NCBI RefSeq assembly: GCF_030684315.1
Contig: NC_081358.1
Coordinates: 39,805,979 to 39,869,978, forward strand
Direction: 5' to 3'
Length of the DNA: 64,000 nucleotides
Source: Stegostoma tigrinum
Taxonomy: Eukaryota
Below the pieces are notes generated by a model that worked only from the letters and a program-made list of their open reading frames with translations, did not search any database and had not been told where the DNA came from. The translations under genes and the position numbers were made by a program. Positions 6,744 to 37,565 of this stretch are shown here, piece after piece (position 1 is the stretch's first letter; every line of letters starts with the position of its first letter).

Positions 6744-6836
6744 AATTTAGCAGATTTGACAACATCTGTGTATAGGTAGAGGGAAACAGTTAATGTTTTG
6801 ACTCTGACCTTCAAAACTGGGATAAGTTAGTGATGT

Positions 6837-7027
6837 CGGGATAGTAGGAACTGCAGATGCTGGAGATCTGAGATAACAAACTGTGTAGAGGTGGATGAAC
6901 ACAGCAGTCCAAACAGCATCAGAGGAGCAGGAAGGCTGACGTTTTGGACCTAGACCCTTCTTCAGAGAGGGTCTTCGGATTGTTGCATGGCCTGCTGTGT
7001 TCATCCAGCTTCATACCTTGTTTTCTC
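6837..7027. mobile_element. Palindromic PLE-terminus mini-insertion (older subfamily, decayed HHR)
   Basis: A minus-strand tail plus HHR is joined to a plus-strand partial arm. TSD TAAGTTAGTGATGT at 6823-6836 and 7028-7041. Confidence 0.88.
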
Positions 7028-8524
7028 TAAGTTAGTGATGTGATAAGTTTTGAGCAAGACACAGTTAGGACAAGGTCAAGAGAAAAGTCTGTAATTGGGT
7101 GGAAGACTGAAAAAATTGAATGACAGAAACGTTGATCTTCTAGAGCCAAAGGGAATGAGATGGGCCAAGAAATGTTTCCGGTCTGAATTTATTAAATTGA
7201 CTTGAGGTGGAAAGCTGTAAAGTGCCTAATAGAAAGATGAGGTGCTGTTCCTCAAGTCTGCATTAAGTTTCACCAAATCATTGCAACAGGCGAAGGACAG
7301 AAATGGTAGCCTGAAAGCAAGGTGGAAAATTAAATGATAGGCCACTGGAACCATGCCTGTCGACAGAACAGACATGTTTGCGAAAGAGATGATACTGTTT
7401 GAATTTGGTCGTCTTAATATAGAAGATAACACATTGTGAGCAGTAAATTAGATCGAAAGCAGTATACATAAATCATTAATGGAGATAACAAAGTGTGGAG
7501 CTGTAAATCATTACTTGGGAGGGGAGGTAAAAGTGCAGATGTTACATCTGCATTTCCTGGAGAAGGTGCTTAGGTGATCAGTTGTTGGAGATTGTGAACT
7601 GAACCAAGGTATCATGGAGGGAGTGGAGGGCAAGACTTGTTTGGTAATGGAGTCATGCTGAAGGTAGCAAAAATAGCAGAAAATATTTCATTGAATGGAA
7701 AGACTGTTGAGGTGGAAGATGAGGACAAGGAGACCTCTGTTATGGTTAACAGAAGGAGGGTAAGGGTGAGAGCAGAAGTGTGGGACATGTGGGAACAGGG
7801 GCCAGGTCAACCACAGTGAGGTAAATCCTAATTTCAGGAATAAAGATTTCTTAGGAGCATTGTTGTTTAATACTGCATCATTAGGACAGATGTCATGGTG
7901 GATACAGATTAACTGAGAGTGTAGAGTGGGGTCCCATAGAGAATTGGGTGTAAATTAGTATATGATATCTATGCATTCTTCTTTGCCTCGCAGGCGGTGG
8001 AGGAAATGGCAATAGTGTGTGTTTGATCAGCTTCTTCCCTTTGTTTCATGAGGCAATATTGTGCCTCTCTAAGAATTTTCCTCATGTCCTCTTGATAGTT
8101 GTGATTTCTTTTATGACAATTGCTCTTGGTTTTGGTTATCATTTTAATTGTCTTCTACCTAGATGCCAGTGGGCTTGGGATTGATAGGTGAATATGATTT
8201 GCCAACCTTGCCCTTATTTGCAGTAAAGTTTTTTTTGATTACCTTAATTTACATGTAGAACATGAGAAATCAGCTCAGAGTGCGTTGGAATAATCAAGTG
8301 CAGAAGATAAAGTGATAGATGAGAGTTTCAGCAGCCTGTGAGCTGAAATAGGAGTCTAATGCTGTTAATGGTCGAGGGGTGAATATTGTTCATGACATCG
8401 TGAAGATTTTCTTGCTTTTTGAAGCAGGCAAACTGGACTTTGATTGAATGGCATTTTGAGCAATTAAAACTCTATCAGCATGTCACTGATGTGTAAGTCT
8501 ACTTTACAAGCTTAAGTTTCTTAA

Positions 8525-9809
8525 GTGGGATTGGAAAAGGTTATAAGGGATAGGATTTATAATCATCTAGAAAAGAATAAATTGATTAGGGATAGTCAGC
8601 ACGGTTTTGTCAAGGGAAGGTCATGCCTCACAAACCGCATTGAGTTCTTTGAGAAGGTGACCAAACAGGTAGATGAGAGTAAACCGGTTGATGTGGTGTA
8701 TATGGATTTCAGCAAGGCGTTCGATAAGGTTCCCCACAATAGGCTATTGTACAAAATGCAGAGGAATGGGATTGTGGGAGACATAGCAGTTTGGATCGGA
8801 AATTGGCTTGCTGAAAGAAGACAGAGGGTGGTAGTTGATGGGAAATGTTCATCCTGGAGACCAGTTACTAGTGGTGTACCGCAAGGGTCGGTGTTGGGTC
8901 CACTGCTGTTTGTCATTTTTATAAATGACGTGGAAGTTGCCACCCAGGTTGACAAGATAATAAAGTGTGAAGCTGGATGAACACAGCAGGCCAAGCAGCA
9001 TCTCAGGAGCACAAAAGCTGACATATCAGGCTTAGACCCTTTTTCATATCTCTGATGAAGGGTCTAGGCCCGAAACGTCAGCTTTTGTGCTCCTGAGATG
9101 CTGCTTGGCCTGCTGTGTTCATCCAGCTTCACACTTTATTATCTTGGATTCTCCAGCATCTGCAGTTCCCATTATGTCACCCAGGTTGACAGGGCTGTTA
9201 AGAAGGCACACAGTGTTTTAGCTTTTATTAATAGAGGGATCGAGTTCCGGAACCAAGAGGTTATGGGGAAGCTGTACAAAACTCTGGTGCGGCTGCACTT
9301 GGAGTATTGCGTACAGTTCTGGTCACTGCATTATAAGAAGGACGTGGATGCTTTGGAAAGGCTGCAGAGGAGATTTACTAGGATGTTGCCTAGTATGGAG
9401 GGAAGGTCTTATGAAGAAAGGCTGAGGGACTTGAGGCTGTTTTCATTAGAGAGAAGAAGGTTGAGAGGTGACTTAATTGAAACATATGAAATAATCAGAG
9501 GGTTGGAGAGGGAGAGCCTTTTTCCTAGGATGGTGACGGCGAGCACGAGGGGGCATAGCTTTAAATTGAGGGGTGAAAGATATAGGACAGATGTCCGAGG
9601 TAGTTTCTTTACTCAGAGAGTAGTAAGGGAATGGAACGCTTTGCCTGCAACGGTCGTAGATTTGCCAACTTTAGGTACATTTAAGTCGTCATTGGATAAG
9701 CATATGGATGTACGTGGAATAGTGTAGGTTAGATGGGCTTCAGATCGGTATGACAGGTCGGCACAACATCAAGGGCCGAAGGGCCTGTACTGTGCTGTTA
9801 TGTTCTATG
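8525..9809 (+). mobile_element. CR1/HER1-type LINE, 5'-truncated ORF2 with internal deletion
   Basis: [48 protein letters not shown], then a jump to the C-terminal region (FADD motif deleted). Ends ...GGCCTGTACTGTGCTGTTATGTTCTATG. Confidence 0.92.
8955..9177. mobile_element. Palindromic PLE-terminus mini-insertion with an intact HHR core (9052-9079, +)
   Basis: Two head-to-head copies of the PLE 3' terminus. TSD CACCCAGGTTGACA at 8941-8954 and 9178-9191. Interrupts a CR1 ORF2. Confidence 0.9.
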
Positions 9810-11969
9810 AACCCTTGTAATTGTGATTTAGAGGGGAAAATGAGTTAGATGTCCAGTCTGTGTGTTATTCTCATGTGAACACGAACAGATATTGAACTTG
9901 GAGAAATGGGCTGTTTGTTTTTTTTTAATGTATGCCTGAGTCATGATTTAGTGGGTAGCACTCACCTCTTAGTCAGAAGTCCGTGGGTTCATGATCTTCA
10001 CCAGTGGCTTGAGAAAAAAATTGAGGCTAACGCTTCATTGAAGCAGTGAGAGCAGTTTTGCACACTGAGGTACCATCTTACAGAAAATAATTGGGCAAAT
10101 ACTGCAAACTGGAAACTTGGGAGGCCTGTGGAGAAAACTAGACAAAGAGAAGAGGAATGAGTGACTGATGAAATGAGCATTGCAAACATAACCTGTGTCT
10201 TGTTCATCTCAGATGTGTTCTGCACCTCATGACTCACAACAAGAAGAGCGATATTCTTATTTGATCCATCCATCAATGTTTTATAACAAAACCCTATTTC
10301 AAAAAAATTTCTCCTTGTCATGCCAAAACTTCTAATGTCAATCAGAAAAATGTAGTTGTTGATTGTACTGTGAAATTGTTTTGCTTTACTAAACAGGAGC
10401 TTCCCTGAAAGGCCTGTAGGAAACTTGTCTGTCACATTTGTTAAAGATCTCAGTAGCCATTCTTATGTAGAGATGCCTTGTCCAAACCACAGATAGTACC
10501 TCCTTGATGCAGCAATCAAATATCTCTCCATACCAACATTCGCTTAAAGAGAATCTGGCTTTTGTTCATTGCAGGTTCTGACCCATAGTCTGTAGTCAGG
10601 ATCTGTGAATTCATCTTAGAGAATGTAATTTTATCCTCTGTAGACGGTGGGGAGTTTGAGTTTGAGAATAATTATGTCAATAAATACCTTGGGTTCAGAC
10701 CGAATGCCTGAGAGTATATTTTTCAGTTACGCAAATTGAAATTCCAAATGTTCAGGAAGTTGAGGTAAAGTGGACAGTCTGTTGCTGTGATTGTTTGCAA
10801 TTTGTTTATTACTCACTGAAGGTACAGTTGGACTGATCTCAAAAGTTGTGCTAGACGTGGAAAGCACAGTCGGAAGTATCATCATCAGCACCACAGTGTA
10901 CTAGCTGTATCTCTGACCTGCACTCCCATTGGTGATCGCAGTCTGCTCGGACTATGCACTTCTGTGTCTTAATCTTTCTCCTGATGACAGCTCCAGGGGC
11001 GCCTCAAACTCCCTTGCCATTTTCATTCTTTCCTAGCCTCTCCTACTGCTATACTAAATCAAGTCCAAATATTAAAATAGTGAATTTAGTGTAAGAAAGT
11101 TTATTATTGTAACGTAAACCCAAAACAACTCAATGAAGTGTTCATGAGCAACTTTGATTTTTTTAAGTTGTATTTTTTTTAATATCATGGAAATATGTGA
11201 CGCAGGTGATAGCTGTATCATATAAGTCTGCTGAGAAGAATTATCTAGCCTTAGCATATAGTAGGATATTGATTTATGACTCGATTTGTTATCATGCGCT
11301 CAATGGCAAAATAAGTGAATATTCATTTTTAGATGTTGTTGAAGCATCCTACATGTACAACCCTTTCAGGAGTGGTCACTGTTGTAATGTAGGAAAAGAT
11401 GCTGCCAATTTACAAGATGTCATGCACAACATTAGATAAATGGGCAGAATTTTTTTCTGATGATAACTCGGAAAAAGTATTGGCCAGAATTCTAGGTTAA
11501 CACACCTGCACTTCTTCAAAATAGCACCAAGGGATCTATCGTTCCTCTGAGAGAGTAGACGGAAGGCCTGTGGCTCATCTGACAGTGCAGCACTCAGTGT
11601 TGTACCAGACTTGTTGGCTTTCATTTGTCTGTTGTTCAGTGGCTCAGTGGGATTTGAACCAATAATGTTTGGAGATGTAAGTGTTACCCCACCAAACCAT
11701 TGTTGACGTGATGCGTCAGATACTGTTGAGTTTTGATAGTTGTATGAAATTACTTGCTATCTCTGAAAATGCTGGAGTAGTGTCACTTCTAGCAATTGAT
11801 TTTACTGAGGATGAAGAAGAAGGGACAACATGAAAATCTGTCCTCAAGTGGATGGCTGACCTGAAATGTAGGGACATTGACAGGATTCATCTCAGGATAA
11901 CAAATGAAAGTGTGGGTTGTATTTTTCTATCCCCAGTGTACATGATGGTGCCGTTGTCCAGCACGATTG

Positions 11970-13580: not shown

Positions 13581-14032
13581 TTTTAATAGCTTTGTTCAAT
13601 CCTGTGGAAAAGCTTGGCCTGGATTGGAGACTATACAATAAACAAGTACAAAAAAATTAATAGATTTAGCAAATAAAGATTTGATCATTCTGGTAGTTTT
13701 TGTTTGGAAGTTGAGAAAAGTGGTAATGAGAGGATCATTTGTGGCATTGTGACCATTGTTTTCAGTGTTTGTTAATTTGAAAATACTGCTCACCATTTTA
13801 CTGCAGTATCTGCCAAGAACAACATGAGTGATTCTGCTAATTCAAATAGTTCAGCATTTTTCACCCAATTTTATTTATAATAAGGGGAAATAAACATGCA
13901 AGAGCAAAACTCTAGTACTCTGAGAATTGTTGTCAGTGTTAAATTAGCGCAAACAAAATGAAAACTGAGGAACCTTGTGTCAAATAAAATACATAGGATG
14001 GAGTGGTAGGGAAGTGGGATGGTGGCTGTTTT

Positions 14033-14155
14033 GGAGATAGTTGGAACTGCAGATGCTGGAGAATTTGAGATAACCTCTAGGCCCAAAATTTTGGCCTTCC
14101 TGCTCCTCTGCTGCTTGACCTGCAGTGTTCATCCAGCTCTACACCTTGTTATCTC
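14033..14155. mobile_element. PLE-terminus mini-insertion, inverted junction, decayed
   Basis: GAGATAGTTGGAACTGCAGATGCTGG (minus tail) is followed by a plus arm ending ACACCTTGTTATCTC. Degenerate TSD TGGTGGCTGTTTT / TGGTGGTCATTTT. Confidence 0.75.
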
Positions 14156-17100
14156 TGGTGGTCATTTTACCCTGCTTCTACAGTCAATAATTAGTCATGT
14201 AGCTAATGTTTGAGAGTAGGTTCATGTTAATTTACACTGTTCCATTACAAGTGCACATTTGTGTCTTGTCAATTGGAACCAATTCAAGTTAATTTGTCAA
14301 GATTTATTTCCCCATAAAATTGTTTTTTTTTAAGAAAAGCTTCATTACTTGGGAGCAAAGTTTTTTCATGCCTTATTATTGACTTTTAAGATATAATGCA
14401 AGCATTTGTTGGTTCCTGACAGACATAAAAGGAAAATCATTATTTTTATCCCCTGAATTTTATCTTCTGCACCTGCCACAATTCCCCCACAGCCATTCTT
14501 CCCTCCCTACCTGAGCATAACGTGTATTGAATCTGCCAGTTTTAATACTGTTTATATTGTGTGACCATTGGAATCTAGAATTATTAATTCTAATGCATAA
14601 CAGGCACAGAAGACTTTGTTTATACTATGGATTACAATAGGCCACAGACTCCAACAGGAGCTATCAGCAGCAGGGAAGAAATTACCATCAATAGCAAGTT
14701 CAACACCCAAGGTACTTTTGAAGCATACTTGCTGCTGTGAGCTCAGAAAATATGCTGAATCTGCAATCTTTTGGTGTCGTGGAATAACAGGATTAAGTAT
14801 GGATAACATTAATAAAGTTTAATAATAGTGGCACAGACTGTTTAAGAAAGACAGGACTGGGTATAAAAGGAAGTGATGAACCTGTATTTGTCAGGAGCAC
14901 CTGAGAGGTTAATGATCTTTCGATGGGAGGTTGCATGTTGTAGAATGTATCAGTGTGATTAAATTTTGCAAAAAAGTCAAATTACAGTGAGAGTAGAATA
15001 TGCATTGGAGACTAGGATGGTACAAGAAAATGGTAGCTTGCTCCATGAAGAAATCACTTGCATTTGAAAGCTATTTTAAGGGGAGATGTCAGTCACTCTG
15101 TTGTGAGCTGAAAGAAGTCATGTGGTTTAGAGCCAGAGTAGGCAGGACGTAATGGATGGCTGTTGCTTGATATGCTTATGAGAATAAAGCCCTAAGAGGC
15201 AATGTTCATTATAATTTGGTATTCATAAAACTCTCAGAAACTAACACAAAGTGGAAGTTGTAGCACCCCTGGGTGACAGCAAGCACAGAATGTTAAAGTC
15301 TAGCACCAGGGAGGTTGGTGCTGAGTGTCAGGATCAGTTCCGTGAAATGAGGAAACAGATAATTTTAGAATGGATTTAAGGATATTCTTCTCATGCAAAC
15401 AGTAAGCAATGTGTTGTATTGACGTTCAAGTAGACTTGATAAAGGTTTGAATTAGGTTTCATATGATATAACAATGACTCTGTACTTAATTGGCTAGAAC
15501 ACACTTTGGGATTTCCTGTGATTGTGGAAAACACTATTTGAGTATTAAGGAATTATCTTTCTAATTGTTTAAAGGAGAACATTGAGGGGGAGATGTGGAG
15601 AAGCAAAGGAAGTGAATTCAGGGACTTGGCAACTATGTGCCTGAAGGCACAGCCACCAGTGTTTGGTCAAAGACAGTGTGGAAATGCACAAGAAAGCACA
15701 GGTGGAAGTTACAGATTTCTTGTTAAGTTGGAGGGATGGAGTAATTTGCAAATAAAAAAGGGGTGAGGCCACAGAGGGATTCACAACAGGATGAGGATTT
15801 TTAAAATCGAGGTACTGGTTCTTTGATGAAAGACCTAGTTCAGCATAAGATTGCAAAGCAGCTGCTGATGAACATCAGCAACTCTGATAAGCCCTCTTCT
15901 ACGGGCTGTGATGTGTATTAATGCTGTGCCTAGGAAGATGGTGGGAGTCCTTCCTTACAACTTTGGATCAGCTGTGATACTTACTGTCTGTTCAACTGAC
16001 AGTGCTGTTTGTGAAGAGATTCCTAGTATCTACTATCCACTGGGTATGGCCTCAAGGCTATGGTTGTCAATTGCCTGATGGTTGACCTGGCACTCTCCTC
16101 TTCTTGGGTGTCAAGAAGCAGCAAAATCAACAATAAGTTGCATTTATATGCCATATTCTATTATTAACCACCTTCTCCTTAAAAAAAATGTTTCACAGGC
16201 ACAGTATCAAAAAAAATTGAGAGAATTGACCAAAAGTTTGTTTTTCAAAGTGTTAGCTTTTAATGGTGAGAAAGAGGAGGGTTTCTGAGGTTTAGGAATA
16301 GAATTTTGGAATATGGCAGCCTAAGGCGCAGCCCCCATGGAGGGGTGTTGAAAATCGGGGATGTGCAGGAAACTCAAATTGGTGGAATACAGAGACAGGG
16401 TTTTGGTCAGTGGAGGATAGTAAACTCCTAACTGAATCGGATATATCTATATACTCCAAGGCAACCAGTGATAGCTTGATCAGGCAGTCTTAATCACAAA
16501 TGAAGCTACGTGGGTAGAGTTGTGGCCAAGGTTCTTCTCACTTGGCTGTAGATAATAATGCATGGAAATTACTGACCATCTATCCCAAATTTCATCAGCC
16601 AGGCAGTCTTTGTTTTGGCCTCAACAGTCATTCCATCTATTTTTAATTGAGAACAAACAGACTTTGGAACTGTGAAACATCATTGTTACTGAGATCAAAT
16701 CCTCCTCAAAACCGAGTCAGAAAGGAAACCATAAGTGTAGCAAACATGCAGGAGGAAATGGGATAAAGTTTTATTTGAAAACCAATTTTAAAAATTTCTT
16801 AACATTCAATGCACCCGAAACCTGTGCAGGAGCTGTTATCTTTTACTTTAAAAAAAATAAGCATTTGGTCAACAGTTTGGTTGGCAAAAACATGATTCAA
16901 TGTATTAAGGCAGAAATTTGTCTGGACAGTGGAGTGTTGTAAAGCCATTGCTTTAATTCAAACTTCTCACAATGAGTGGCCATAACCAGTGTGATACTGA
17001 TTTGATCTGCTCGGTGAGCCGTGAAAAACCCATACTGAAAGTGTGTGTAACAAATATTTGCAGCCTAAATTAATAGCTTAACAAAGATGACGAGCTTCTC

Positions 17101-18235
17101 TGCAGTATTTCTGTTCTGATCATTTATTATAGAACTTCTCATGATATATATGTGTACCTTTTTTAAAAAGCTATTTGGCTTGCTGATATTGGAAAGTTGA
17201 CAACTGGAAAGTAGTCTTGTGTTTATTTACAGTGTGGCTGCTGCAGGACAGAGTGTAGAGTATCGATTCGCGAATATAAGTTGCATGCTGTGCAGGACAT
17301 TTCTTAAATGACGATGACTTTTGCTCGCCACAGCTATTTTTGTTTTTCTTTAGCTAGGGAAGCATGTCCCTTCAGGTCTACTATCCAAGCTTGCAAAGAA
17401 TCAAACCATCTTGGCCAATCAAAGATCTGCCTGATGACCTTTATCTCTTATCTCACCATGATACATTTTGAAAGCGAGAGCTGGTGAGAGTCAGGATCAG
17501 GGGGTCCCTACTGTGGTGTGATGGAAGGTTTGAATCAAAGCAAATAGTGGCTCTTTGTACTTTTTTTCCACATGTCCTGCCAGCTTGCTGTATGGCTGCC
17601 ACAATGGAAACACAGGGAACAGCTTGATTTGCAGGGATTTACATGTGTGCTAATTAGAGTGGAATAAATGATTGGCTGCTCACTGCATTGCTGTAAAGGG
17701 TGCCCAGATGTACACGCTATGTGAACATAATGTGCACGGGCATGGCGCATCAAATTTTGTCAGCTGCATTACCTCAGCAGGCTTAGGGCCTGTCGGAGAG
17801 GATTTGCTGATAATCATCCCTGTGTTTCAGTACTTGACTTGGGAGGTGCAGAGGGGGAGGTGAAAAGAACCACTAAAGTTGTCAGCCTCTATCCCGAAAA
17901 AAAGCACAATTTTATAAGTCTTGATTAAATCTATGCAAAATGACAGAGAAATGTATACTGATAGTTAAGATGAAAGATTTACAGGGAGAGTGAATGTTAA
18001 ATTACTCGTTGACCATGATATTTCCACTTCGTACAAGGGGATATTTGTCAATTACAATCCCTTCTGTGTCTCACACTTGTATTTGCAAAGAACACAACAC
18101 AAATTTCTTGGCTTAACTATGTAATTTTTCTGTGTGTGCTGGTTCCTATTTAATTAGCATTTCAAATATGACAGCCATAGCATACTGTTTATCCCTCAGT
18201 TTGTACATACTCAGGTTTTTTTTGAAATGGACGGA

Positions 18236-19978
18236 CCTCCACTTCCTTCAGGATTTTCAATTCCCTGGCCCCTCAAACCTCATCTTCACCATGGACATCC
18301 AGACACTGTACACATGTACCCCCCACGTAGATGGCCTAAAAGCCCTCTGCTTTTTCCTCTCCTGCAGGCCCAACCAGACCACCTCCACCGACATCTACTG
18401 AATGGAACTTGTCTTTACCCTCAACAACTTTTCCTTTAACTCCTCGCACTTCCTACAAACTAAAGGGCTGGCTGTGGGCACCCGTATGGGTCCGAGCTCT
18501 GCCTGCCTGTTCGTAGGATACGTGGAATAGTCCCTTTTCCACTGATACACTGGCATCATCCCCTTCCTCTTCTTCTGCTACATTGATTGTATCACCGCTG
18601 CCTTGTGTTACCGCAGGAAGCTTGAGCAGTTCATCAACTTTACTAACACCTTTCACCCCAACCTCAAATTCACCTGGACCATCTCTGATACCTTCCTCCA
18701 TTTCCTGGATGTCTCTGCTTCCATAACCAGTAACTGTCTCAGTACTGACATCTATTTCAAACCCACAGCTAACTTGATTACACCTCGTCTCACCCAACCT
18801 CCTACAAGAATGCAATCTCTTACTCCCAATTGCTCTGCCTCCACCACGTCTGCTCCCAGGACAGAGCCTTCCACTCCCACTCGTGTCCGATGTCCTCCTA
18901 ATTCAAGGATTGCAACTTCCCCCTCTCTTGATTGAAAATGCCCTCAACTGCATCTCTTGCATTTCCCACACTTCTTCCCTAAAACCCCCTCCCCCCAACA
19001 AAAATAAATACTGAGTCTCCCTGGCTCTCACATACCACCCCACCAACCTCCGCATCCAGCGCATCACCCTCCACCATTTCTGCCACCATACAATCCAAAC
19101 CTACCACTAAAGAGAGATTCCCCTTTCCCACCCCTATTTGCTTTTCATAGGGACCACTCTCACTCTGCAACTCACTCGTCCACTACTCACTCCCCACTAA
19201 CTCCGCCACACCAGGCACCTTTCCCTGCAACTGCAGGAGATGTTACACATGTCCCTACACCTCTGTTCTCACCTCCATCTGAGGCCCAAGATAAACTTTC
19301 CATATCTGATAGGGGTTCACCTGTACATCCTCCAACCTGGTTTGCTGTATCCCTTGCTCCCGATATGGTCTCAGCTGTATTGGTGAGACCAGCATAGACT
19401 CAGTGACAGATTTGTGGAACATCTGTGCTCCATACACTATAATCAATACCTTCTGGTTGCCAACTATTTTAACTCCTCCTCTCTCCTCCCACTCCCTGGA
19501 TGACATGCCCATCCTGGGCCTCCTCCAGTGCCACAATGATGCCACATGCAAACTGGAGGAACAACACCTCATATTGTGCCTCAGGAGCCTACAACCTGTT
19601 GGCCTAATGTAGAATTCACCAGTTTCAAAATCTCCCTAACCCCAGTGTCATCCCATTTCCAACCCTCCCTCTCATACCCACCTCCTTGACATGACACTAC
19701 CTGTCCATCTCCTTCCATATCTATCTGCCACAACCTTCCCATTGACTAATCCCCACTACCCCTACCTGCATCCACCTATCACCACCCACCTACCTTCCCC
19801 AGGACCACCCCATTTACCTCTATCTATTCTCAGCTCCCTTTCCCCTTCCCGGTCCTGATGAAGGGTCTAGGCCTAAAACATTTACTGTCCTAATCCTCTG
19901 ATGCTGTCTGACCTGCTGTGTTTCTCCAGCTTCGTGCTGTTTTGACTCTGACTCCAGCATCTGCAGTTCTTGCTATCT
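18236..19978 (+). pseudogene. Decayed 5'-truncated PLE of the same lineage (RT C-half, GIY-YIG, 3'UTR, degenerate HHR at ~19855)
   Basis: Fragments LHFLQDFQFPGPSNLIFTMDIQTLY, LEQFINFTNTFHPNLKFTW and LEEQHLI, with stops and frameshifts. Terminal CTCCAGCATCTGCAGTTC. Confidence 0.9.
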
Positions 19979-20519
19979 TTTGCAATTGTTATTTTTCAAG
20001 TGACTGCCTATCATGTACAAAGTTTATAAATGCATGGTGATTATCTCCATTCAAAATAATGTTATGGAAAAATATTGTCATGTTGCCAATGTTGTCAAAT
20101 CAGTAATAAACTTTTAAAAGGCAAATTGAGATCGCAGTCTTCTGTTGTATCATTTGTTGCACAAATATTTCCTGTTTAATCTCCTCTATTTTTATTAATA
20201 AAAAAGCAGTTTTCTAAAGCTGGTATAAGGTAACTTTTAGTGGTGTCAACATGCCTCCAGTTGATCTGGAAGAAAAAAAAAGCTTTGCTAAAGAATTCGG
20301 TATATAACTAATTCAGCTGCTTGGCAGATTTATTAATCTCTTCTTGGTCCTTTTCATTGGTTGTAAAATGTATTGGGATGTCCCGAAGCTATAAAAGATG
20401 TTATGTAAATGCAAATTAATTAATTCATACTTGAAAGATGCCCTTCAGAATATGTCATACTCCTTGTCACAAAAATGACAAGGTTTTTTTTTGTTTTGGT
20501 TTCCATTTTGTTGTGTGTT

Positions 20520-20945: not shown

Positions 20946-20972
20946 TCTGAACTAAATGCCAAGATCAGTTGT

Positions 20973-21875
20973 ATCAGAGATAATGGGAACTGCAGATGCT
21001 GGAGAATTCCAAGATAATAAAATGTGAGGCTGGATGAACACAGCAGGCCAAGCAGCATCTCAGGAGCACAAAAGCTGACGTTTCGGGCCTAGACCCTTCT
21101 TCAGAGAGGGGGATGGGGAGAGGGAGCTGGAATAAATAGGGAGAGAGGGGGAGGCGGACCGAAGATGGAGAGTAAAGAAGATAGGTGGAGAGAGTATAGG
21201 TGGGGTGGTAGGGAGGGGATAGGTCAGTCCAGGGAAGACGGACAGGTCAAGGAGGTGGGATGGGGTTAGTAGGTAGCTGGGGGTGCGGCTTGGTGTGGGA
21301 GGAAGGGATGGGTGAGAGGAAGAACCGGTTAGGGAGGCAGAGACAGGTTGGACTGGTTTTGGGATGCAGTGGGTGGGGGTGAAGAGTTGGGCTGGTTGTG
21401 TGGTGCAGTGGGGGGAGGGGACGAACTAGGCTGGTTTAGGGATGCAGTAGGGGAAGGGGAGATTTTGAAACTGGTGAAGTCCACATTGATACCATATGGC
21501 TGCAGGGTTCCCAGGCGGAATATGAGTTGCTGTTCCTGCAACCTTCGGGTGGCATCATTGTGGCAGTGTAGGAGGCCCATGATGGACATGTCATCTAGAG
21601 AATGGGAGGGGGAGTGGAAATGGTTTGCGACTGGGAGGTGCAGTTGTTTGTTGCGAACTGAGCGAAGGTGTTCTGCAAAGCGGTCTCCAAGCCTCCGCTT
21701 GGTTTCCCCAATGTAGAGGAAGCCGCACCGGGTACAATGGATGCAGTATACCACATTGGCAGATGTGCAGGTGAACCTCTGCTTAATGTGGAATGTCATC
21801 TTGGGGCCTGCGATAGGGGTGAGGGAGGAGGTGTGGGGACAAGTGTAGCATTTCCTGCGGTTGCAGGGGAAGGTG
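20973..21875 (-). repeat. Inverted copy of the PLE 3' end (GIY-YIG region, 3'UTR, HHR and terminal tail)
   Basis: The minus-strand ORF 21329-21958 reproduces TFPCNRRKCYTC...SNLSLPP. The arm also carries ~40 nt of terminal tail (20973-21014) that the sense copy lacks. Confidence 0.95.
21077..21104 (-). ncRNA. Minimal hammerhead motif in the inverted arm
   Basis: Reverse complement reads CTGAAGAAGGGTCTAGGCCCGAAACGTC; the only change is at the variable N7 position. Confidence 0.78.
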
Positions 21876-21928
21876 TCAAGATAATAAAATGTGAGGCTGG
21901 ATGAACACAGCAGGCCAAGCAGCATCTC

Positions 21929-24900
21929 CGGACCAACCTCAGGGAATCTCTCTCCCATTGCAACTCTGTTGTAATCTCTTCGGCCTTGAAACTACTCGAC
22001 CATGTCCTGAAGCAAACCAGGTACCACAGCCACATCACCTTCCTCAGCACCTGCCTACGGAACCAGATCATCCCCAAGGGACTACAGTCCACATTTCAGC
22101 CTTCCCAATTTGGCCCCAACCGTGACCACCTCTACACCCAGAATATTCAGACCCTTGAGAAGCGTTTCTCCCTGCGAGTCCTGAAACAGACGCTTGCAGC
22201 CATGCGCCGGCACCTCCAGGCACTGCAATCCAGCCTGCCCCAGCTCAGAGCCTCCCTCTCCCAGACCTGCAAAGGACCTCTGCTGTTTTTTATCTTCCGC
22301 AGGATCCACAGACTGAACACCCAGTTCCACTCAGCTTTACTGGACACCAAAAATCGTAAGTACAACCAACTCACGGGCCCCTGCCACCCACAAGAGGATT
22401 CCTGCGCCTCCCAAATCCCGACTCTGTCCCTGCCCCTCCCCCACCATGCATCCGCCGCCATTGACCATGAGGACACGGCCGGAGACCCCACCGATGACGT
22501 CACATCCGCCTCCGCCGGCCACAGAACTTCCGGAACCGCTGCAGCAGTCACCACCTCCACATCCAGGTACAACACCCCACACACTACCCTCACCGCAGCT
22601 GCTGCCGCCCACCCCGATCCTCCAACCGCCGACGGAACCCCGCCCACGGCTGACGGAACCCCGCCCACGGCCGATGACCTCATCGCTCCGCCCGCAACCT
22701 CCACAGCCAGCAACCCCAGAGGAGACAGCCACACTCAGCCCTGCCGCATCTTCACCATCCCCCCAGACCTCCCACTGACTGAGGACGAATGGTCAGTCCT
22801 TAGCAAGGGGCTCACCTTTGTTCCCCTACAACCACACATCAACGAATACCAGTCACGGTTGGACATAGAGCAGTTTTTCCGCCGTCTTCGCCTCCATGCC
22901 TACTTCTTCAACCGGGAACCTAACCCTCCTTCCACTGACCCCTTCACCCGCTTCCAACACAAGTCCTCCTCCTGGACACCACCCCCAGGCCTCCTACCCT
23001 CCCTCAACCTCTTCATCTCCAACTGCCGTCGAGACATTAACCGCCTCAACCTCTCCACCCCTCTCACCCACTCCAACCTCTCCCCCGCAGAACGGGCAGC
23101 CCTCCGCTCCCTCTGCTCCAACCCCAACCTCACCATCAAACCCGCAGACAAGGGTGGCGCAGTGGTAGTATGGCACACTGACCTCTACATCGCCGAGGCC
23201 AGACGCCAACTCTCCGACACCACCTCCTACCGCCTCCTCGATCATGACCCCACACCCGAGCACCAAACCATCATCTCCAACACCATTCACGACCTCATCA
23301 CCTCAGGGGACCTCCCACCCACAGCCTCCAACCTCATTGTTCCCCAACCCCGCACGGCCCGTTTCTATCTCCTTCCCAAAATCCACAAACCTGCCTGCCC
23401 TGGTCGACACATCGTCTCAGCCTGCTCCTGCCCCACCGAACTCATCTCCACCTATCTGGACTCCATTTTCTCCCCTTTGGTCCAGGAACTCCCCACCTAT
23501 GTCCGTGACACCACCCACGCACTCCACCTCCTCCAGGACTTCCAATTCCCTGGCCCCCAACACCTCATATTCACCATGGACGTCCAGTCCCTGTACACCT
23601 GCATTCCGCATGGAGATGGCCTCAAGGCCCTCCGCTTCTTCCTGCCCCGCAGGCCCGACCAGTCCCCCTCCACCGACACTCTCATCTGCCTAGCTGAATT
23701 CGTCCTCACACTCAACAACTTGTCTTTTGACTCCTCCCACTTCCTACAGACTAAGGGGGTGGCCATGGGCACCCGCATGGGCCCCAGCTATGCCTGCCTC
23801 TTTGTAGGTTACGTGGAACAGTCCCTCTTCCGCACCTACACAGGCCCCAAACCCCACCTCTTCCTCCGGTACATTGATGACTGTATCGGCGCCGCCTCTT
23901 GCTCCCCAGAGGAGCTCGAACAGTTCATCCACTTCACCAACACCTTCCACCCCAACCTTCAGTTCACCTGGGCCATCTCCAGCACATCCCTCACCTTCCT
24001 GGACCTCTCAGTCTCCATCTCAGGCAACCAGCATGTAACTGATGTCCATTTCAAGCCCACCGACTCCCACAGCTACCTAGAATACACCTCCTCCCACCCA
24101 CCCTCCTGCAAAAATTCCATCCCCTATTCCCAATTCCTCCGCCTCCGCCGCATCTGCTCCCACGATAAGACATTCCACTCCCGCACATCCCAGATGTCCA
24201 AGTTCTTTAAGGACCGCAACTTTCCCCCCACAGTGATTGAGAACGCCCTTGACCGCGTCACCCCTATTTCCCGCAACACATCCCTCACACCCCGCCCCCG
24301 CCACAACCGCCCTAAGAGGATCCCCCTCGTTCTCACACACCACCCTACCAACCTCCGGATACAACGCATTATCCTCCGACACTTCCGCCATTTACAATCC
24401 GACCCCACCACCCAAGACATTTTTCCATCCCCTCCCCTGTCTGCTTTCCAGAGAGACCACTCTCTCCGTGACTCCCTTGTTCGCTCCACACTGCCCTCCA
24501 ACCCCACCACACCCGGCACCTTCCCCTGCAACCGCAGGAAATGCTACACTTGTCCCCTCACTTCCTCCCTCACCCCTATCGCAGGCCCCAAGATGACATT
24601 TCACATTAAGCAGAGGTTCACCTGCACATCTGCCAATGTGGTATACTGCATCCACTGTACCCGGTGCGGCTCCCTCTACATTGGGGAAACCAAGCGGAGG
24701 CTTGGAGACCGCTTTGCAGAACACCTCCGCTCAGTTCTCAACAAACAACTGCACCTCCCAGTCGCAAACCATTTCCACTCCCCCTCCCATTCTCGAGATG
24801 ACATGTCCATCATGGGCCTCCTGCACTGCCACAATGATGCCACCCGAAGGTTGCAGGAACAGCAACTCATATTCCGCCTGGGAACCCTGCAGCCATATGG

Positions 24901-25075
24901 TATCAATGTGGACTTCACCAGTTTCAAAATCTCCCCTTCCCCTACTGCATCCCTAAACCAGCCTAGTTCGTCCCCTCCCCCCACTGCACCACACAACCAG
25001 CCCAGCTTCCCGCGCCCCCCCACCCACCCACCCACTGCATCCCAAAACCAGTCCAACCTGTCTCTGCCTCCCTAA
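21929..25075 (+). CDS. PLE polyprotein: N-terminal domain, T/P/A-rich linker, reverse transcriptase, Cys-rich linker, GIY-YIG endonuclease (5'-truncated, no native ATG)
   Basis: The frame is open from the junction at 21929 (the ORF track starts at a TTG, 21986) to TAA at 25075. RT motifs: FTMDVQSLYT, QTKGVAMGTRMGPSYA, LRYIDD (YIDD at 23870-23881), FLDL. Linker CNRRKCYTC. Endonuclease NVVYCIHCTRCGSLYIGETKRRLGDRFAEH...EQQLIFRLGTLQPYGIN. Confidence 0.93.
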   Translation, partial: RTNLRESLSHCNSVVISSALKLLDHVLKQTRYHSHITFLSTCLRNQIIPKGLQSTFQPSQFGPNRDHLYTQNIQTLEKRFSLRVLKQTLAAMRRHLQALQSSLPQLRASLSQTCKGPLLFFIFRRIHRLNTQFHSALLDTKNRKYNQLTGPCHPQEDSCASQIPTLSLPLPHHASAAIDHEDTAGDPTDDVTSASAGHRTSGTAAAVTTSTSRYNTPHTTLTAAAAAHPDPPTADGTPPTADGTPPTADDLIAPPATSTASNPRGDSHTQPCRIFTIPPDLPLTEDEWSVLSKGLTFVPLQPHINEYQSRLDIEQFFRRLRLHAYFFNREPNPPSTDPFTRFQHKSSSWTPPPGLLPSLNLFISNCRRDINRLNLSTPLTHSNLSPAERAALRSLCSNPNLTIKPADKGGAVVVWHTDLYIAEARRQLSDTTSYRLLDHDPTPEHQTIISNTIHDLITSGDLPPTASNLIVPQPRTARFYLLPKIHKPACPGRHIVSACSCPTELISTYLDSIFSPLVQELPTYVRDTTHALHLLQDFQFPGPQHLIFTMDVQSLYTCIPHGDGLKALRFFLPRRPDQSPSTDTLICLAEFVLTLNNLSFDSSHFLQTKGVAMGTRMGPSYACLFVGYVEQSLFRTYTGPKPHLFLRYIDDCIGAASCSPEELEQFIHFTNTFHPNLQFTWAISSTSLTFLDLSVSISGNQHVTDVHFKPTDSHSYLEYTSSHPPSCKNSIPYSQFLRLRRICSHDKTFHSRTSQMSKFFKDRNFPPTVIENALDRVTPISRNTSLTPRPRHNRPKRIPLVLTHHPTNLRIQRIILRHFRHLQSDPTTQDIFPSPPLSAFQRDHSLRDSLVRSTLPSNPTTPGTFPCNRRKCYTCPLTSSLTPIAGPKMTFHIKQRFTCTSANVVYCIHCTRCGSLYIGETKRRLGDRFAEHLRSVLNKQLHLPVANHFHSPSHSRDDMSIMGLLHCHNDATRRLQEQQLIFRLGTLQPYGINVDFTSFKISPSPTASLNQPSSSPPPTAPHNQPSFPRPPTHPPTASQNQSNLSLPP

Positions 25076-25299
25076 CCGGTTCTTCCTCTCACCCATCCCT
25101 TCCTCCCACACCAAGCCGCACCCCCAGGTACCTACTAACCTCATCCCACCTCCTTGACCTGTCCGTCTTCCCTGGACTGACCTATCCCCTCCCTACCACC
25201 CCACCTATACTCTCTCCACCTATCTTCTTTACTCTCCATCTTCGGTCCGCCTCCCCCTCTCTCCCTATTTATTCCAGCTCCCTCTCCCCATCCCCCTCT

Positions 25300-25327
25300 C
25301 TGATGAAGGGTCTAGGCCCGAAACGTC
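25300..25327 (+). ncRNA. Minimal type I hammerhead ribozyme motif (tandem copy 1)
   Basis: CTGATGA-A-GGGT(CTAG)GCCC-GAAAC-GTC: conserved core boxes, a 4-bp stem II and palindromic ACGT at helix III. Confidence 0.8.
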
Positions 25328-25363
25328 CCTATTTATTCCAGCTCCCTCTCCCCATCCCCCTCT

Positions 25364-25391
25364 CTGATGAAGGGTCTAGGCCCGAAACGTC
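25364..25391 (+). ncRNA. Minimal type I hammerhead ribozyme motif (tandem copy 2)
   Basis: Identical 28-nt core, 64 nt downstream of copy 1. Confidence 0.82.
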
Positions 25392-25789
25392 AGCTTTTGT
25401 GCTCCTGAGATGCTGCTTGGCCTGCTGTGTTCATCCAGCCTCACATTTTATTAGCCAAGATCAGTTGTCACTGTTTTAATACGGACATTTTCCAAACAAA
25501 CATTTAATGAGTCTTTAACAAACCTATGTTCCTGACAGTGTAGCGAATTCAGTAACCAAGTTCAGATTTGTTCTTGATAGAAATATGACTTCTGTTATTT
25601 GCAACTATATTGACAATAAGCACTTCTTGTTTGTCTAAATTTATTCCAAAGAAAATTGCTTGCATTTTAATTGAGGAATGTGCAATAATTTTCAGTAGAT
25701 GGATTTATGCTTACTGACATCAAGTTGTACATAAAATTCTTGTTTGCTGCAATCTGGTCCATGGAAATCATGTATGAGCAATAAATCTT

Positions 25790-26550
25790 TCACATGATTT
25801 GCTTATTTTAACTGCCTCCATTCGTCTTGTGCTGAAATCCTCACCTATGTCTTTGTCACATCTGCAGCTGACAATTCTAATGGTCCCTTGGCTGGATTCT
25901 TATCTCCCACCCACATAAACATTGGCTTGTTGAAAATCCTGTTCCCCACCACCCTCTCTGCTCACCTATATATTGACACTAACTGCCAATCAACCGTCAT
26001 CTCTCTGCTTGCTAGCTTAACACTAGTTCTCGATCTAGCAATGCCCTGGTTTTAAAGCTCTAAATTGTAGTTTTCAAACCTCTCCATGGTCTCACTCTCT
26101 TCCTATCTCAATAACCTGCCTTAGTTTGACAAATTTTGGAAGTCTTTCTGGTCCTCTAATTCTGATGTCCTGTGCTCACTGAATATTGATCTATTAGTGG
26201 GGCTATAACTTCAGCTACTTTAGCTCTAGCTTTGAAAGTACCTCTGTAAACCTATCGACCTCTTCACCACTCATCTGGGCCCGAAATGTCAGCTTTTGTG
26301 CTCCTGAGATGCTGCTTGGCCTGCTGTGTTCATCCAGCCTCACATTTTATTATCTTGGAATTCTCCAGCATCTGCAGTTCCCATTATCTCTGACCTCTTC
26401 ACCACTCTCACTTTAGGATTTTTTTTAAAAACAACTTCTCTGACCAGACTTTTTGGTTTCTTTGGTAGGTTAGTTTCAAATAATGTTAGATAATATTCAT
26501 GTGAAGTGCTTTGGAATGTATCCATGCATTAAAGGTGCTATATAAATGCA
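25790..26550 (+). mobile_element. Decayed L2-type LINE 3' end
   Basis: CTCACCTATGTCTTTGTCACATCTGCAGCTGACAATTCTAATGG resembles LIHAFVTSRLDYSN; tail AAAGGTGCTATATAAATGCAAATTGTTG. Confidence 0.6.
26273..26391 (+). mobile_element. Solo PLE 3' terminus insertion, truncated within HHR stem II
   Basis: Near-identical to the terminus of the 20973 element. 16-bp TSD GACCTCTTCACCACTC at 26257-26272 and 26392-26407. Confidence 0.9.
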
Positions 26551-26640: not shown

Positions 26641-26643
<3 letters not shown>

Positions 26644-26700: not shown

Positions 26701-26702
<2 letters not shown>

Positions 26703-28600: not shown

Positions 28601-28844
28601 GACAAAGGCCCATTGGTCTGTAGTTCTCGGACACAATTTGACTTTGTGCCACATGAGATATTAAGACAAGTGACCATAGCTTTTTGAAAGGTAGATTTCT
28701 AGAAATGTTTGAAAGGAGGAGAGAAAACTATGAAAGCAGAGTGGTTTCGTGTGGAAATTCTGGAACTTAAAGTCTAGGCAGTTGAAATACAGTTATTCAT
28801 GCCGGTGGAATCAAAATCAGGATTTATAAATAATTCAGTCATAG

Positions 28845-34036: not shown

Positions 34037-34129
34037 CTCTCTGATGAAGGGTCTAGGCCCGAAACGTCAGCTTTTGTGCTCCTGAGATGCTACTTGGCCT
34101 GCAGTGTTCATCCGGCTTCACACTTTATT
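34037..34129 (+). mobile_element. Solo PLE terminus fragment with an intact HHR core (34041-34068)
   Basis: CTGATGAAGGGTCTAGGCCCGAAACGTCAGCTTTTGTGCTCCTGAG...CACTTTATT; no clear TSD. Confidence 0.85.
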
Positions 34130-35089
34130 CGCATGTTGTCACACACTGTTTTCCTCTGAAACAAGGAGGTGAGGTACGCAGTGCAAAAGGGAAGGCTTCC
34201 AAATGCGTTTACACTTGCTTAGGTAGGCATGTAGACTCCCAAAACAGGCAATTCAAAGTGAAACTCCAGAAATCTATTGGGTGAACAGTCTTGTTCTTTT
34301 GCAACGAAGGTAAACTGTGATCAGAAATTCAATGCCACTAATGCCTCAGTGTTAAAATTGCTGTCTTGCAAGCTACATTTTATTAATTAATAATATTTTA
34401 CAAGAAGGACAGCTCACAGTAAGCAGCAGTGCTGATATTGGATATTTAATGCCAATTCACCCATAAACTACCATTCAAAGGCCACTGCATTTTTAAATTA
34501 ATGTGATGGGGAGCAAATGTTTATGTAAGCAGAACTTTAAATGTAGGTGTTTGAGCTTAAGAGGGGCAGCACTGGTCACGTCAAAATATTAATCACATTC
34601 ATGAAAATCAATGTTAACATTAAACAGCACAGAGATCTGGCACATGTCAGCCAGGGAAGGACCAGTCATGGGTTGTAGAAAATGGGCCTCTCCATTTATA
34701 GGTGATGGTACATCAGTTTTTCACCCAAAACAGGATCAGTCAGAGAACGGTGAAATGGGTATGTTCACTATGTTGAGATCTTGACTGGAAAGCATAGACC
34801 ACAATCTACATCTCTCTTCACAGATGCAGACCTCTGTATCAGATATCACAAGCACTAGACCTAACAGCTGCTTGATTTGGGAAATGGTGTAATGCCTATG
34901 GTGCTGAGGTCAGAGCTGCATTGAACTCCCTTGTCACCAGCTCTTTACAAAACTCAACTGGGGACACGGGTGGCATTTACCAGTCAGTAACCCACAAGTG
35001 TATTTGTGGATACTCTTTGCTTGAAAGCTACTCAGTTTGTGATGGTTCGGACAACCCAACTACTAGAGCCTGGAACATTGTGTTGTAGA

Positions 35090-37565
35090 TTCAACTGGGG
35101 ATCATGTTATTTTGGATCTGGTGAATTGTAATGTGCCATATTTAATAAGTGATCTCAGAATAAAAGATGCCCTATAACATTATTTAATGTTCAATTTGAG
35201 AATGAGAAACTTGAGTCAGAAACAACTGCCAATTTAAATAAGGGTAATTATGTAAGAATGAGGGGATTGTTGGCTGGAGTGGATTTGGAAGGGATTTGGC
35301 AGAAAAGCCTGTTGAGGAACAATGGTAGGTGGGTGTGTTCTTTTAAAAAAAACTGTTTATAACACATGGAAAGATTTTAGAAAGGGAATATATTTAATAT
35401 GGTTAACCAGGGGAATTAAGGACGGCATTAAATTGAAAGATAAAGCATAAAATGGGAGACATTTGTTGTAAATCATAGGAATAGGAAAGTTTTAAAAGCC
35501 AATAAAAATGACCAAAAAATAAACCAAGAGGACAAACTGCCAAGTATCACTAAAACAAACAATAAGAACTTATTGAAATGTATAAGGAAGAGAGACAACA
35601 GTGAACTTGGGCCCCTTAAAGAATGTGGTTGGGGAAATAATGATGGGGAATCGGGAAATGGTAAAGGACTTGAACAAATACTTTGCAGTAGTCTTCACTG
35701 TAGAGGATACTAAAAGCATTCAAAAACTCTAATAATAAGGGGCTTAAGGGGAGGAGGAAGTAAACACACAACAATCACTGGAGAAAAAGTACTAGGAAAA
35801 CTAATGCAGCTAAACGCTGATAAGTTCCTGGACCTGATGGGTTACATCTATTGGATTTTAAAGACAGTAGCTGCAGCAATGGTGCATGCACTGGTAGTAA
35901 TCTTCCAATAATTCTTAGAGTCTGGAAGATCCCAGTAGATTGCAAAGTTGCCAATGTAACAGCCTTATTCAAAAGGGGAGGGAAATGCATAAAGCAAAAC
36001 AGGTTACTGTAGCCCAAGTGACATTCCATTTGTCATTGGGAAAATTTTCACATGTATTATAAAAGGATGTAATCACATGACACCAGGTTATTGTCCAACA
36101 GGCTCATTTGAAATCACAAGCTTTTGAGGCATTGCCCTTCATCATTCTATTCTTTGCTATTCTTTGAAAACTTATGATTTCAAATAAACCTGTTGGACGA
36201 TAACCTGGTCTTGTCTGACTTCTGACTTTACCCACCTCAGTTCAACACTGGCACCTCCACAAAAAGGATGAAATAGTAGAGCCTTTAAACATACAATGTC
36301 ATCAAGAAGAGTCAGCATGGCTTCATGAAGTCAAAACCATGCCTGACAAGTTTATTGAAGATCTTTGGAGAGGTATGTTGGGGGTGGTATAGAAACTAGG
36401 AGTAGGAGTAGCCAGTTTGGCCCTTCAAGTCCACTCTGCCATTTAATACGATCATGTCTGATTCTGTGTCTCAATGCCATTTTCCCACTTTCTCTCTACT
36501 ACTTGGTGCCTTTAATATCTGAAAATTGATCAATCTCTTTCTTGTTTATACTCAGTGAGCCAGCTTCCACAGCTTTCTATGGGTGAGAATTCCACAGGTT
36601 TACCGCCCATTGTTTGAAGAAATGTTTCCTCATCTCAGTCCTAAATGGTTCACCCCCTGTCCTCAGACTGTGACCTTTGGTAGTAGACTCACCAAGCAGG
36701 GGAACTTTTTCTCTGCATCTAGTTTGTCCATCCCTATTAGAATTTTATAAGTTTCAATCAGATTCCCCCTCATCCCTGCTAAACTCTAGTGAATACAGGG
36801 TCACTTGAAACTATCTGTCCTTATCCAACAGGCCTGCCTTCCCTGCATCAGTCAAGTGTACTTCCGCTGCACTCCCTCCGTGGCAAGTATGTCCCCTTTT
36901 AGATAGGGAGACCGAAATAGCACATGATTCTCCAGGTGCAGTCTACATAAGTGCTGTCATACATCCCGTTTCTGAACTCTCTTCATCTTACAATGAAGAC
37001 CAACATAACAGCTGCCTAAGTGCTTTTAGCACCTGTCTGTTTACTTTAATTGATGTGTACAAAGGCACCCAGATACACTGAGAAATGGGATGTAAAAATG
37101 TATCACATTTAACTAATTCTTGCCTTTCTGTTTTTCGCATCAAAATGTATAACTTCATATATATCCATGTTTGTTAGCAAAGGTGGAGGATTGGCTACTA
37201 ATAGCGGACAGAGTTGGGATAAAGGGGGCATTTTCAGATTTAACCTGTAACCAGAGGAGTGCCATTGGGTCAAATAGATCTACAAATATTTATAAAATGT
37301 ATTAATGATTTGGATGATGGAAGTGAATGTACAATTGCCAAGTTTGTGGATGACACAAAATTAGGTGGGAAGGTAACTAGTGAGGGTGACACAAAGCAGT
37401 GTATAGAGCGAAATGGACGGGTTAAGTGAATGGGTAAAAATTTAGCCAGTAAAATATAAGATGGGAAGATGTTAGGTTGTGCACTTTGGCAAGAAGAATA
37501 GGAGAACTGAATGCTGTTTAAGTGGAGAAAGACTGCAGAATCTGCACTGCAGAGAGATTTGGGTA
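35090..37565 (+). mobile_element. Old CR1 LINE, with an antisense CR1 (~36385-37170) and a mini-palindrome nested in it
   Basis: CCTGGACCTGATGGGTTACATC (PGPDG), CAGCATGGCTTCATGAAG (QHGF) and AAGTTTGTGGATGACACAAAA (KFxDDTK). Confidence 0.75.
36074..36261. mobile_element. Palindromic mini-insertion of a second family with a decayed HHR-like core
   Basis: Inverted arms at ~36080-36125 and ~36166-36211. TSD AAAAGGATG(T/A)AAT at 36061-36073 and 36262-36274. The minus strand reads TGATGAAGGGCAATGCCTCAAAAGCTT. Confidence 0.75.

Follow-up and report, generated by a model that had tools for sequence, protein, structure and literature searches.

A 64,000-nt stretch of Stegostoma tigrinum contig NC_081358.1 (hereafter the window; source assembly 3.2 Gb) contains several tiny palindromic insertions, together with a coding copy of the Penelope-like element (PLE) whose terminus they are made of. 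Our main conclusion, to which we assign a probability of roughly 0.7, is that these palindromes are the shortest insertion products of a Neptune-type PLE, built anew at each site by two-ended priming and run-off. Genome-wide, the exact 39-nt core of the terminus occurs 132,572 times, palindrome centres matching a short mirror pattern number 10,903, and the 44 pairs spanning less than 300 bp found in 1.2 Mb extrapolate to ~120,000 per genome.

Signed positions refer to a natural copy in tandem context (L156) that served as our ruler, position 0 being the base after the conserved end of the tail. On this ruler the core of the hammerhead ribozyme (HHR) starts at -125 with its predicted cut at -98/-97, a TATA-like TATTTAT starts at -159, and the ATG of the open reading frame (ORF) lies at +42. 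Most of 25 ORF-bearing loci have the terminus, the tail and the beginning of the ORF in one unbroken run, with the pseudo-long terminal repeat (pLTR) in partial tandem before the ORF, and the terminus, rightly called the 3' end of the element in the first-pass annotation of the window, is also the 5' leader of the next unit's ORF.

Three short insertions in the window consist, as that annotation had described, of head-to-head pieces of the PLE terminus, one arm bearing the tail and the other lacking it. The young insertion at 8955-9177 (8941..9191 with flanks, both strands) has a minus-strand tail-less arm extending to -119, a plus-strand tail-bearing arm from -128, and an exact 14-bp target-site duplication (TSD; 8941-8954 and 9178-9191). 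It is nested in another repeat with reverse transcriptase (RT)-like frames (window 8525-9727), which we take to be CR1-like. Twenty-one paralogue matches of this host repeat reach the TSD; the best 12 of the 21 were viewed, one being the locus itself, and among these listed matches the 14-mer was present once in each of the 11 paralogues, so that the TSD is a true duplication that arose on insertion, and no empty site already holding both copies was seen among the 11. The host repeat is also internally deleted relative to its paralogues, a few bases to the left of the TSD. Paralogous empty sites yielded no usable match for the insertions at 6837, 14033, 26273 and 20974, and two diverged matches for that at 36070.

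The older insertion at 6837-7027 (6823..7041, both strands) has an exact 14-bp TSD as well (6823-6836 and 7028-7041), with a tail-bearing minus-strand arm extending to -131 and a tail-less plus-strand arm beginning near -78. In the old insertion at 14033-14155 (14020..14168, both strands) the left arm is the 32-nt tail alone and its tail-less partner runs from -114; the 13-bp near-repeat flanking it has 3 mismatches and is on its own not above chance. The TSDs of 13-14 bp claimed earlier thus stand at two of these three sites, and the claim that the arms join at or near the HHR suits the 8955 copy well, with the right arm at 6837 starting ~20 nt downstream of the cut and 14033 contributing only a tail on its left. 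Solo arms accompany these pairs: a plus-strand tail-bearing arm at 26273-26391 (26257..26407), from -114, has the exact 16-bp TSD reported for it (26257/26392), and a TSD was looked for and not found at two tail-less arms, one on the plus strand at 34037..34132, which starts exactly at -129 and is preceded by G, and an older one on the minus strand at 61219..61310.

To describe the architecture beyond the window we used a position-blind sample of 1.26 Mb, comprising twelve 100-kb blocks picked by position plus the window itself. Thirty loci ranked by likeness to the query were excluded from the end-position and length statistics; the haplotype test (100 pairs) and the TSD test (69 pairs) described below do draw on these 30, as well as on pattern-selected loci. 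Adjacent arms in the sample were head-to-head in 56 cases, tail-to-tail in 2 and direct in 3. A TSD of at least 10 bp flanked 35 of the 56 head-to-head pairs vs 1 of 168 mismatched-flank controls; TSD length has its mode at 14 and ranges from 10 to 17 bp. The 3' ends of the arms are bimodal, lying near -33 (inner) or at 0 to +8 (outer, tail included), and these match the two start sites known in vitro from the available account of an anole element (PMC11167929). The tail sits on a single arm in 45 of 46 classifiable sample pairs (10 of 56 being unclassifiable) and in 123 of 129 pairs overall, one of the remainder being tail-less; L002, L004 and L250 are palindromes with a tail on both arms. 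Anchoring on TSDs gave the same picture: among the 86 of 164 arms with a candidate TSD (78 had no exact 11-mer TSD), 30 with a tail had an inner-start partner, 28 without a tail had an outer-start partner, one with a tail had an outer-start partner, and 27 had no partner, part of these 27 being spurious matches to element sequence. The two-armed form is therefore the majority of TSD-bounded young insertions (59/86 arms).

Microhomology at the two outer ends exceeded that of shuffles (2.48 vs 0.57 and 1.40 vs 0.52), counted on the 42/69 and 47/69 ends without untemplated bases. Insert sizes form a continuum from 76 to 4,481 bp that includes the coding copy, and the insertions have the inverted 5'-truncated copy, the 30-40 nt tail at one end and the TSD of a PLE insertion unit. 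Arm lengths within a pair are correlated (rho 0.79), the 41 adjacent pairs being made up of 29 short-short, 12 long-long and no mixed combinations. One two-armed insertion (L048, C2 block 71308-75229) contains several tandem 830-bp units of the 3' part of the element.

The arms also share a 5' limit. In 197 young arms the density of 5' ends was 2.3 per nt at -115 to -140 vs 0.25 per nt at -141 to -200, a ninefold difference, and -129, which lies 30 nt past the TATA-like box, was the modal position. Genome-wide, 6314 arms begin at exactly -129, and G directly precedes that position in 83 of the best 100 of these 6314; among the matches listed, the G persists when rows of the mirror-type GAG are set aside (49/66) and in solo arms (7/10), and at L254 it is the sole base between TSD and arm. 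Long arms carry C, not G, before -129 in 85 of 86 cases, so the G of the short arms is untemplated. An extra G at the 5' end of L1 has been read as a copied cap, according to the part of that report available (PMC11702581), and it is likely, judging from these end positions, that -129 is a capped transcription start and the extra G a copy of the cap. The main stop point, ~30 nt upstream of the ribozyme cut, would then behave as a capped transcription start. Four of the 25 ORF-bearing copies start between -94 and -128, which is what a single RNA extending from -129 across the ORF would lead one to expect. The palindromes themselves are without the TATA-like box. A TATA-less internal promoter is described for Penelope of Drosophila virilis in the accessible text of PMC2377424, so a TATA-driven start need not be general.

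A second, minor limit coincides with the predicted ribozyme cut. Among the three short insertions, only the 8955 copy has kept an intact HHR core (9052..9079, plus strand; CUGAUGA, an extra A, a 4-bp stem II and GAAA-CG-UC, predicted cut after 9079), and the core bases, stem II, extra base at 9/10.1 and palindromic helix III are those of a minimal hammerhead. An Rfam search of the window at the gathering threshold gave no match, which is uninformative for minimal hammerheads; stem I covariation was not shown, the scan having returned nearly one family alone. In stability, the fold of the HHR region does not exceed that of shuffles (z -0.80), and the predicted fold of the monomer is not the active hammerhead shape. 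Across the genome, 3008 arms have their 5' end at -97 vs 330 at -96, and 771 perfect palindromes are centred on the cut-site AGCT vs 53 on ACGT and 25 on GGCC, both nearby self-complementary 4-mers. There is no excess of G at -97 (7/26 non-overlap rows among the matches listed), as expected of an uncapped cut end. We consider HHR cleavage at -97 in vivo somewhat more probable than not on these patterns.

Palindrome centres are diverse, and those that recur cross haplotypes: the AGCT-centred junction was found on 4 haplotypes, and an ATC/AG-type junction on 3, occurring both ways round relative to the tail. Identical junctions recur on unrelated haplotypes because the template ends are fixed. 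Recurrent identical junctions had been proposed beforehand as the sign of a self-propagating family; they do recur, 771 times for one kind, and their occurrence on unrelated haplotypes makes that sign misleading. At five diagnostic sites, the arms of 100 young pairs differed at 0, 1, 2, 3, 4 and 5 sites in 64, 21, 10, 2, 2 and 1 pairs, respectively. Differences at two or more sites were thus seen in 15 of 100 pairs, vs 0.65 expected from mutation at the background arm-to-arm difference of 2.6% per site (2.5 at a doubled rate). Random pairing of arms predicts 63 of 100 pairs with at least two differences and 15 of 100 identical at all five sites, a figure that pools ages and so overstates contemporaneous diversity. 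Among the discordant pairs are copies whose centre is perfect or almost perfect (L269, L277, L237), with no loop from which to fold back. With arms of differing haplotype in 15 of 100 pairs, a minority of pairs appear clearly to have used two templates, and most seem to have used one source.

The coding element, 20973-25453, likewise consists of two arms joined head to head, a build not mentioned in the first-pass annotation, and is bounded by a 15-bp TSD (20958..20972 and 25454..25468, plus strand). It is laid out as a tail-bearing inverted arm of ~900 nt (20973..21875, minus strand), which extends into the GIY-YIG region, and a direct part of 3.5 kb without a tail. A second short antisense piece (21877..21935, minus strand) begins at the inner start site, and its restart after 900 nt suggests re-initiation or a template jump; short antisense pieces of this sort are also present in L167 and L171. 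The plus-strand open frame (21905..25075; 1056 aa from stop to stop) carries RT, linker and GIY-YIG motifs, namely DKG at 23147, YIDD at 23870, a CX4CxxC linker at 24527 (CNRRKCYTC) and GIY-YIG at 24641 with an internal CxxC (VYCIHCTRCGSLYIG), and is without the 5' pLTR and the first codons found in unbroken copies. Pfam matches fell below the cut-offs (RVT_1, E 3.6e-5; GIY-YIG, E 4.7e-4, the latter on the inverted arm), and comparison of the ORF with solved structures gave no match. A CX2-5CxxC linker before GIY-YIG and two cysteines inside GIY-YIG mark Neptune and Nematis, as stated in the consulted sections of PMC8557442. The coding copy has the single ORF, the RT, the C-terminal GIY-YIG, the linker and the two internal cysteines of an endonuclease-positive (EN+) PLE of that type, and would be labelled Neptune rather than Nematis from its linker motif and from the distribution of Neptune in vertebrates.

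At its 3' end the coding copy carries the TATA-like TATTTAT at 25330..25336 (plus strand), 30 nt upstream of the modal run-off point, and a 3' pLTR at 25360..25453 (plus strand) with -129 at 25360, the HHR core at 25364-25391 and a tail-less end. A 64-nt tandem duplication at 25262-25389 spans the TATA-like box (second TATTTAT at 25266) and the HHR, and its first unit stops at the predicted cut site. This duplication prompted the idea that the upstream cleavage product serves as the acceptor of a template jump, which we rejected as a general route, since 3' ends at the cut site are rare (38 genome-wide). Eight of these 38 matches share the next three bases (L284, L285, L291, L296 and L298 among them), which suggests another small family or an HHR variant.

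Other terminus families behave similarly. The palindrome at 36070-36261 (36061..36270, both strands; one tail; 9-bp exact TSD, or 13 bp with 1 mismatch) gave no cross-matches with the main terminus and belongs to a separate family, and the range 6823..36274, first annotated as a single family, accordingly divides. This second family has its own minimal hammerhead and forms one-tailed palindromes also at L302, L305, L307, L309, L310, L312 and L313. Its long copies carry a canonical TATAAAT 31 nt before a TCA-type, initiator-like start; in the best 50 of 51 loci, examined with a pattern whose 15-nt gap limits the visible extension of the arms, G precedes the start A in 14 of 19 centres counted by eye (7 of them unambiguous) and C or T in 5. 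At L302 a family-1 arm with its TSD is inserted inside an arm of a family-2 palindrome. A third, older family, related to the first, is represented at L301, L303, L304, L306, L311, L315 and window 18237-19980, where an older decayed related PLE lies on the plus strand (72% identity, related terminus), and it likewise makes one-tailed palindromes with TSD-like flanks. Two further local direct duplications in the window, ~230 nt at 874-nt spacing (41404-42504) and 117 nt at 343-nt spacing (39264-39723), are unrelated to the palindromes.

These observations can be assembled into the following sequence of events. Nicks staggered by perhaps 12-16 nt would leave the TSD that is seen at the flanks; one target strand would then prime at the outer site (0 to +8), so that its copy includes the tail, and the second strand at ~-33, the inner site, each with 1-3 nt of pairing to the target, in keeping with the observed end positions and microhomology. 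A precedent exists in vitro, where a purified PLE protein nicks and extends both strands from two internal start sites, as the available text of PMC11167929 reports. The RNA would likely start at -129, 30 nt past the TATA-like box, and the cDNA would run off there and copy the presumed cap as an extra base, which fits the pile-up of ends and the untemplated G; a minority of cDNAs would likely run off at the HHR cut, -97. The two cDNA ends would be joined head to head by a repair path yielding the short overlaps, deletions and inserted bases seen in the junction spectrum. Priming on the RNA's 3' pLTR copy would yield two-armed insertions of the long kind, the coding copy in the window among them, and at least some insertions would use two different RNA templates. 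A more specific version, which we advance only tentatively and rate slightly below even odds, is that the two-ended reaction is inherent in PLE integration and is conducted by an asymmetric dimer, one target strand being primed at each of the two fixed internal sites, sometimes on two different RNAs. The ~100,000 palindromes of this genome would then be strong-stop products that map a TATA-driven start with a cap and provide the first in vivo footprint of a PLE minimal hammerhead that cuts its own template.

Several points weigh against this account. Of the best 100 of the 3008 ends at -97, 74 are explicable by overlap with the partner arm, and the remaining 26% (~780) exceed the number at -96 only ~2.4-fold; an AGCT centre would arise equally from stops at -95, and the monomer RNA is predicted to form a hairpin from -125 to -96 with its 3' foot at -96, so that stalling could mimic cleavage. 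Transcription start, cap and in vivo cleavage are all read from DNA alone. By the test used, 21 of 56 head-to-head pairs have no TSD, 5 of 129 pairs are two-tailed, and the correlation of arm lengths is not predicted by independent priming without an extra coupling step, for which the first finished cDNA may capture its partner, or both may use the same pLTR copy. As many as 64 of 100 pairs are identical at all five diagnostic sites and 12 of 201 rare variants are common to both arms, as fold-back or later gene conversion would give. In the anole element, according to the available part of PMC11167929, start site and target share no homology and none of the reads end at the HHR cut.

The alternative that draws most on these points is fold-back or self-priming, in which one cDNA or antisense template is copied back on itself, with the second end produced by a cut at the inner site, as proposed in the accessible text of PMC3846280. 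It would account for arms that are usually of the same haplotype, share some rare variants and agree in length, and some junctions do use self-complementary stretches such as stem II. We nonetheless hold it to be unlikely: arms of different haplotypes occur, the most frequent centres form perfect or nearly perfect mirrors that overlap by 0-4 nt and have no loop, the longer arm is as often of one type as of the other (17 vs 17, 7 equal), and the extra G suits a sense, capped template. Fold-back is unable to make discordant pairs or loop-less mirror centres, and is possible for the rest. Shrinkage after insertion, whether by loss of the middle or by recombination between direct pLTRs leaving an inverted arm and a solo pLTR, could draw on the commonness of long two-armed insertions, and pLTR recombination would retain the TSD, the single tail and the extra G; yet in 29 of 41 pairs neither arm extends past -129, mixed pairs being absent, long elements carry long inverted arms, none of the 25 ORF-bearing loci has a short inverted arm before a pLTR starting near -129 (370 nt upstream covered), and random central loss would not yield peaks at -129 and -97. 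Shrinkage is thus very unlikely.

Families of miniature inverted-repeat transposable elements (MITEs) are of uniform size, with symmetric ends, a fixed short TSD and a junction inherited with the haplotype. Here sizes run from 76 to 4481 bp, ends are asymmetric, TSDs span 10-17 bp and junctions are common across haplotypes. A self-propagating non-autonomous family, MITE-like or retrozyme-like and mobilized in trans by the PLE protein, which was one of two possibilities raised at the outset, is suggested by the very high copy number and by junctions that recur hundreds of times, and non-autonomous PLE derivatives do exist, as described in the portions of PMC8557442 and bioRxiv 10.64898/2026.07.22.740005 at hand. 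The finding of a single junction on several haplotypes and in either orientation with respect to the tail, the size continuum up to the coding copy, the want of a TATA-like box in the palindromes, and the rarity of direct neighbours (3 vs 56 head-to-head, and no tandem arrays) speak against such a family; its opposite-strand hammerheads would also be expected to pair into one long hairpin in a transcript. We regard it as highly improbable. The other possibility raised, two-ended priming de novo, is the one favoured by the size continuum, the one-tail rule, the junctions crossing haplotypes and orientations and the mixed-haplotype arms. Finally, two-ended priming may be correct and the stops may reflect RT stalling at RNA structure or a pyrimidine run rather than RNA ends, for which the predicted hairpin and the breadth of the pile-up near -129 (-115 to -132) can be cited. 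The untemplated G at the start in two families, the 30-31 nt spacing from the TATA box, and the lack of G excess at -97 argue otherwise, and as a general explanation stalling is as improbable as the self-propagating family; for -97 alone it is more plausible than for -129, a minority view to be taken seriously.

If two-ended priming with run-off is correct, tens of thousands of palindromes likely record the RNA start and the position of the ribozyme cut, and the genome is a very large natural record, in which the start site, the cut and the two priming sites are placed precisely enough to be tested. The origin of the inverted structures and one-sided tail of PLEs, and HHR cutting in vivo, are treated as open in the accessible parts of PMC8557442, PMC11167929 and PMC4209133. 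For annotation practice, such palindromes should be recorded as PLE insertion products, not as MITEs or retrozymes. The architecture of the insertions is already published; ORF-less PLE palindromes of the run-off class, a cap-derived G, and cut-site or two-template evidence were not found in the literature searched, subscription papers (Arkhipova 2006) and Repbase/Dfam lying outside that search and the supplementary figures of PMC4209133 and PMC3846280 possibly bearing on these points.

Published EN+ PLE units, as far as the available texts describe them (PMC3846280; PMC8557442; PMC8969392), share with ours the head-to-head inverted, 5'-truncated copy (there an inverted pLTR), the tail of 30-40 nt at one end, the TSD and the palindromic junction. 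They differ in that most products here are ORF-less and both arms end at two fixed points, and in that self-priming on an antisense template was the explanation given, whereas the present data favour two-ended priming on sense, capped RNA. The anole Poseidon element PAc, studied in vitro (PMC11167929), resembles ours in its two internal start sites bounding the tail, the nicking and extension of both target strands, the HHR upstream of the start sites and a predicted dimer. In the sections available, its start site is equal between strands, target homology and RNA ends at the HHR cut are absent, and no account is given of inverted genomic products, a rule of one site per strand, cap copying or junctions; Poseidon is also without the CX2-5CxxC linker of the element here.

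Metazoan PLE minimal hammerheads, in what could be consulted of PMC4209133, have the same core, extra base before stem II, G10.1-C11.1 pair and palindromic 15.2-16.2 without loop 3, and occur as thousands of dispersed copies; here, by contrast, stem II has 4 bp and stem I just 2 bp. That text also mentions opposite-strand hammerhead pairs 100-700 bp apart in Schistosoma and states that in vivo evidence of PLE minimal-hammerhead cleavage is lacking. Non-LTR retrozymes, from the accessible part of bioRxiv 10.64898/2026.07.22.740005, are likewise short, non-coding, HHR-bearing and derived from PLE pLTRs, but form direct tandem arrays with at least two same-strand HHRs, whereas ours are inverted pairs with TSDs (56 head-to-head, 3 direct, 2 tail-to-tail). 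L1 twin priming is similar in geometry: the second target strand primes on the RNA, a TSD of 12-18 bp is kept, the inner junction shows short deletions or duplications, and an extra G marks capped 5' run-off (PMC11702581, in the part available). The L1 cDNAs are taken from neighbouring parts of one RNA that overlap little, whereas here the arms overlap fully, the same segment being copied from two fixed sites, which makes a palindrome the main outcome; geometry, microhomology at both ends and mixed-haplotype arms are all compatible with both target strands priming on the RNA. The palindromes thus belong to the PLE type of insertion, not to MITEs or retrozymes, and resemble an L1 twin priming performed on fixed sites and overlapping segments.

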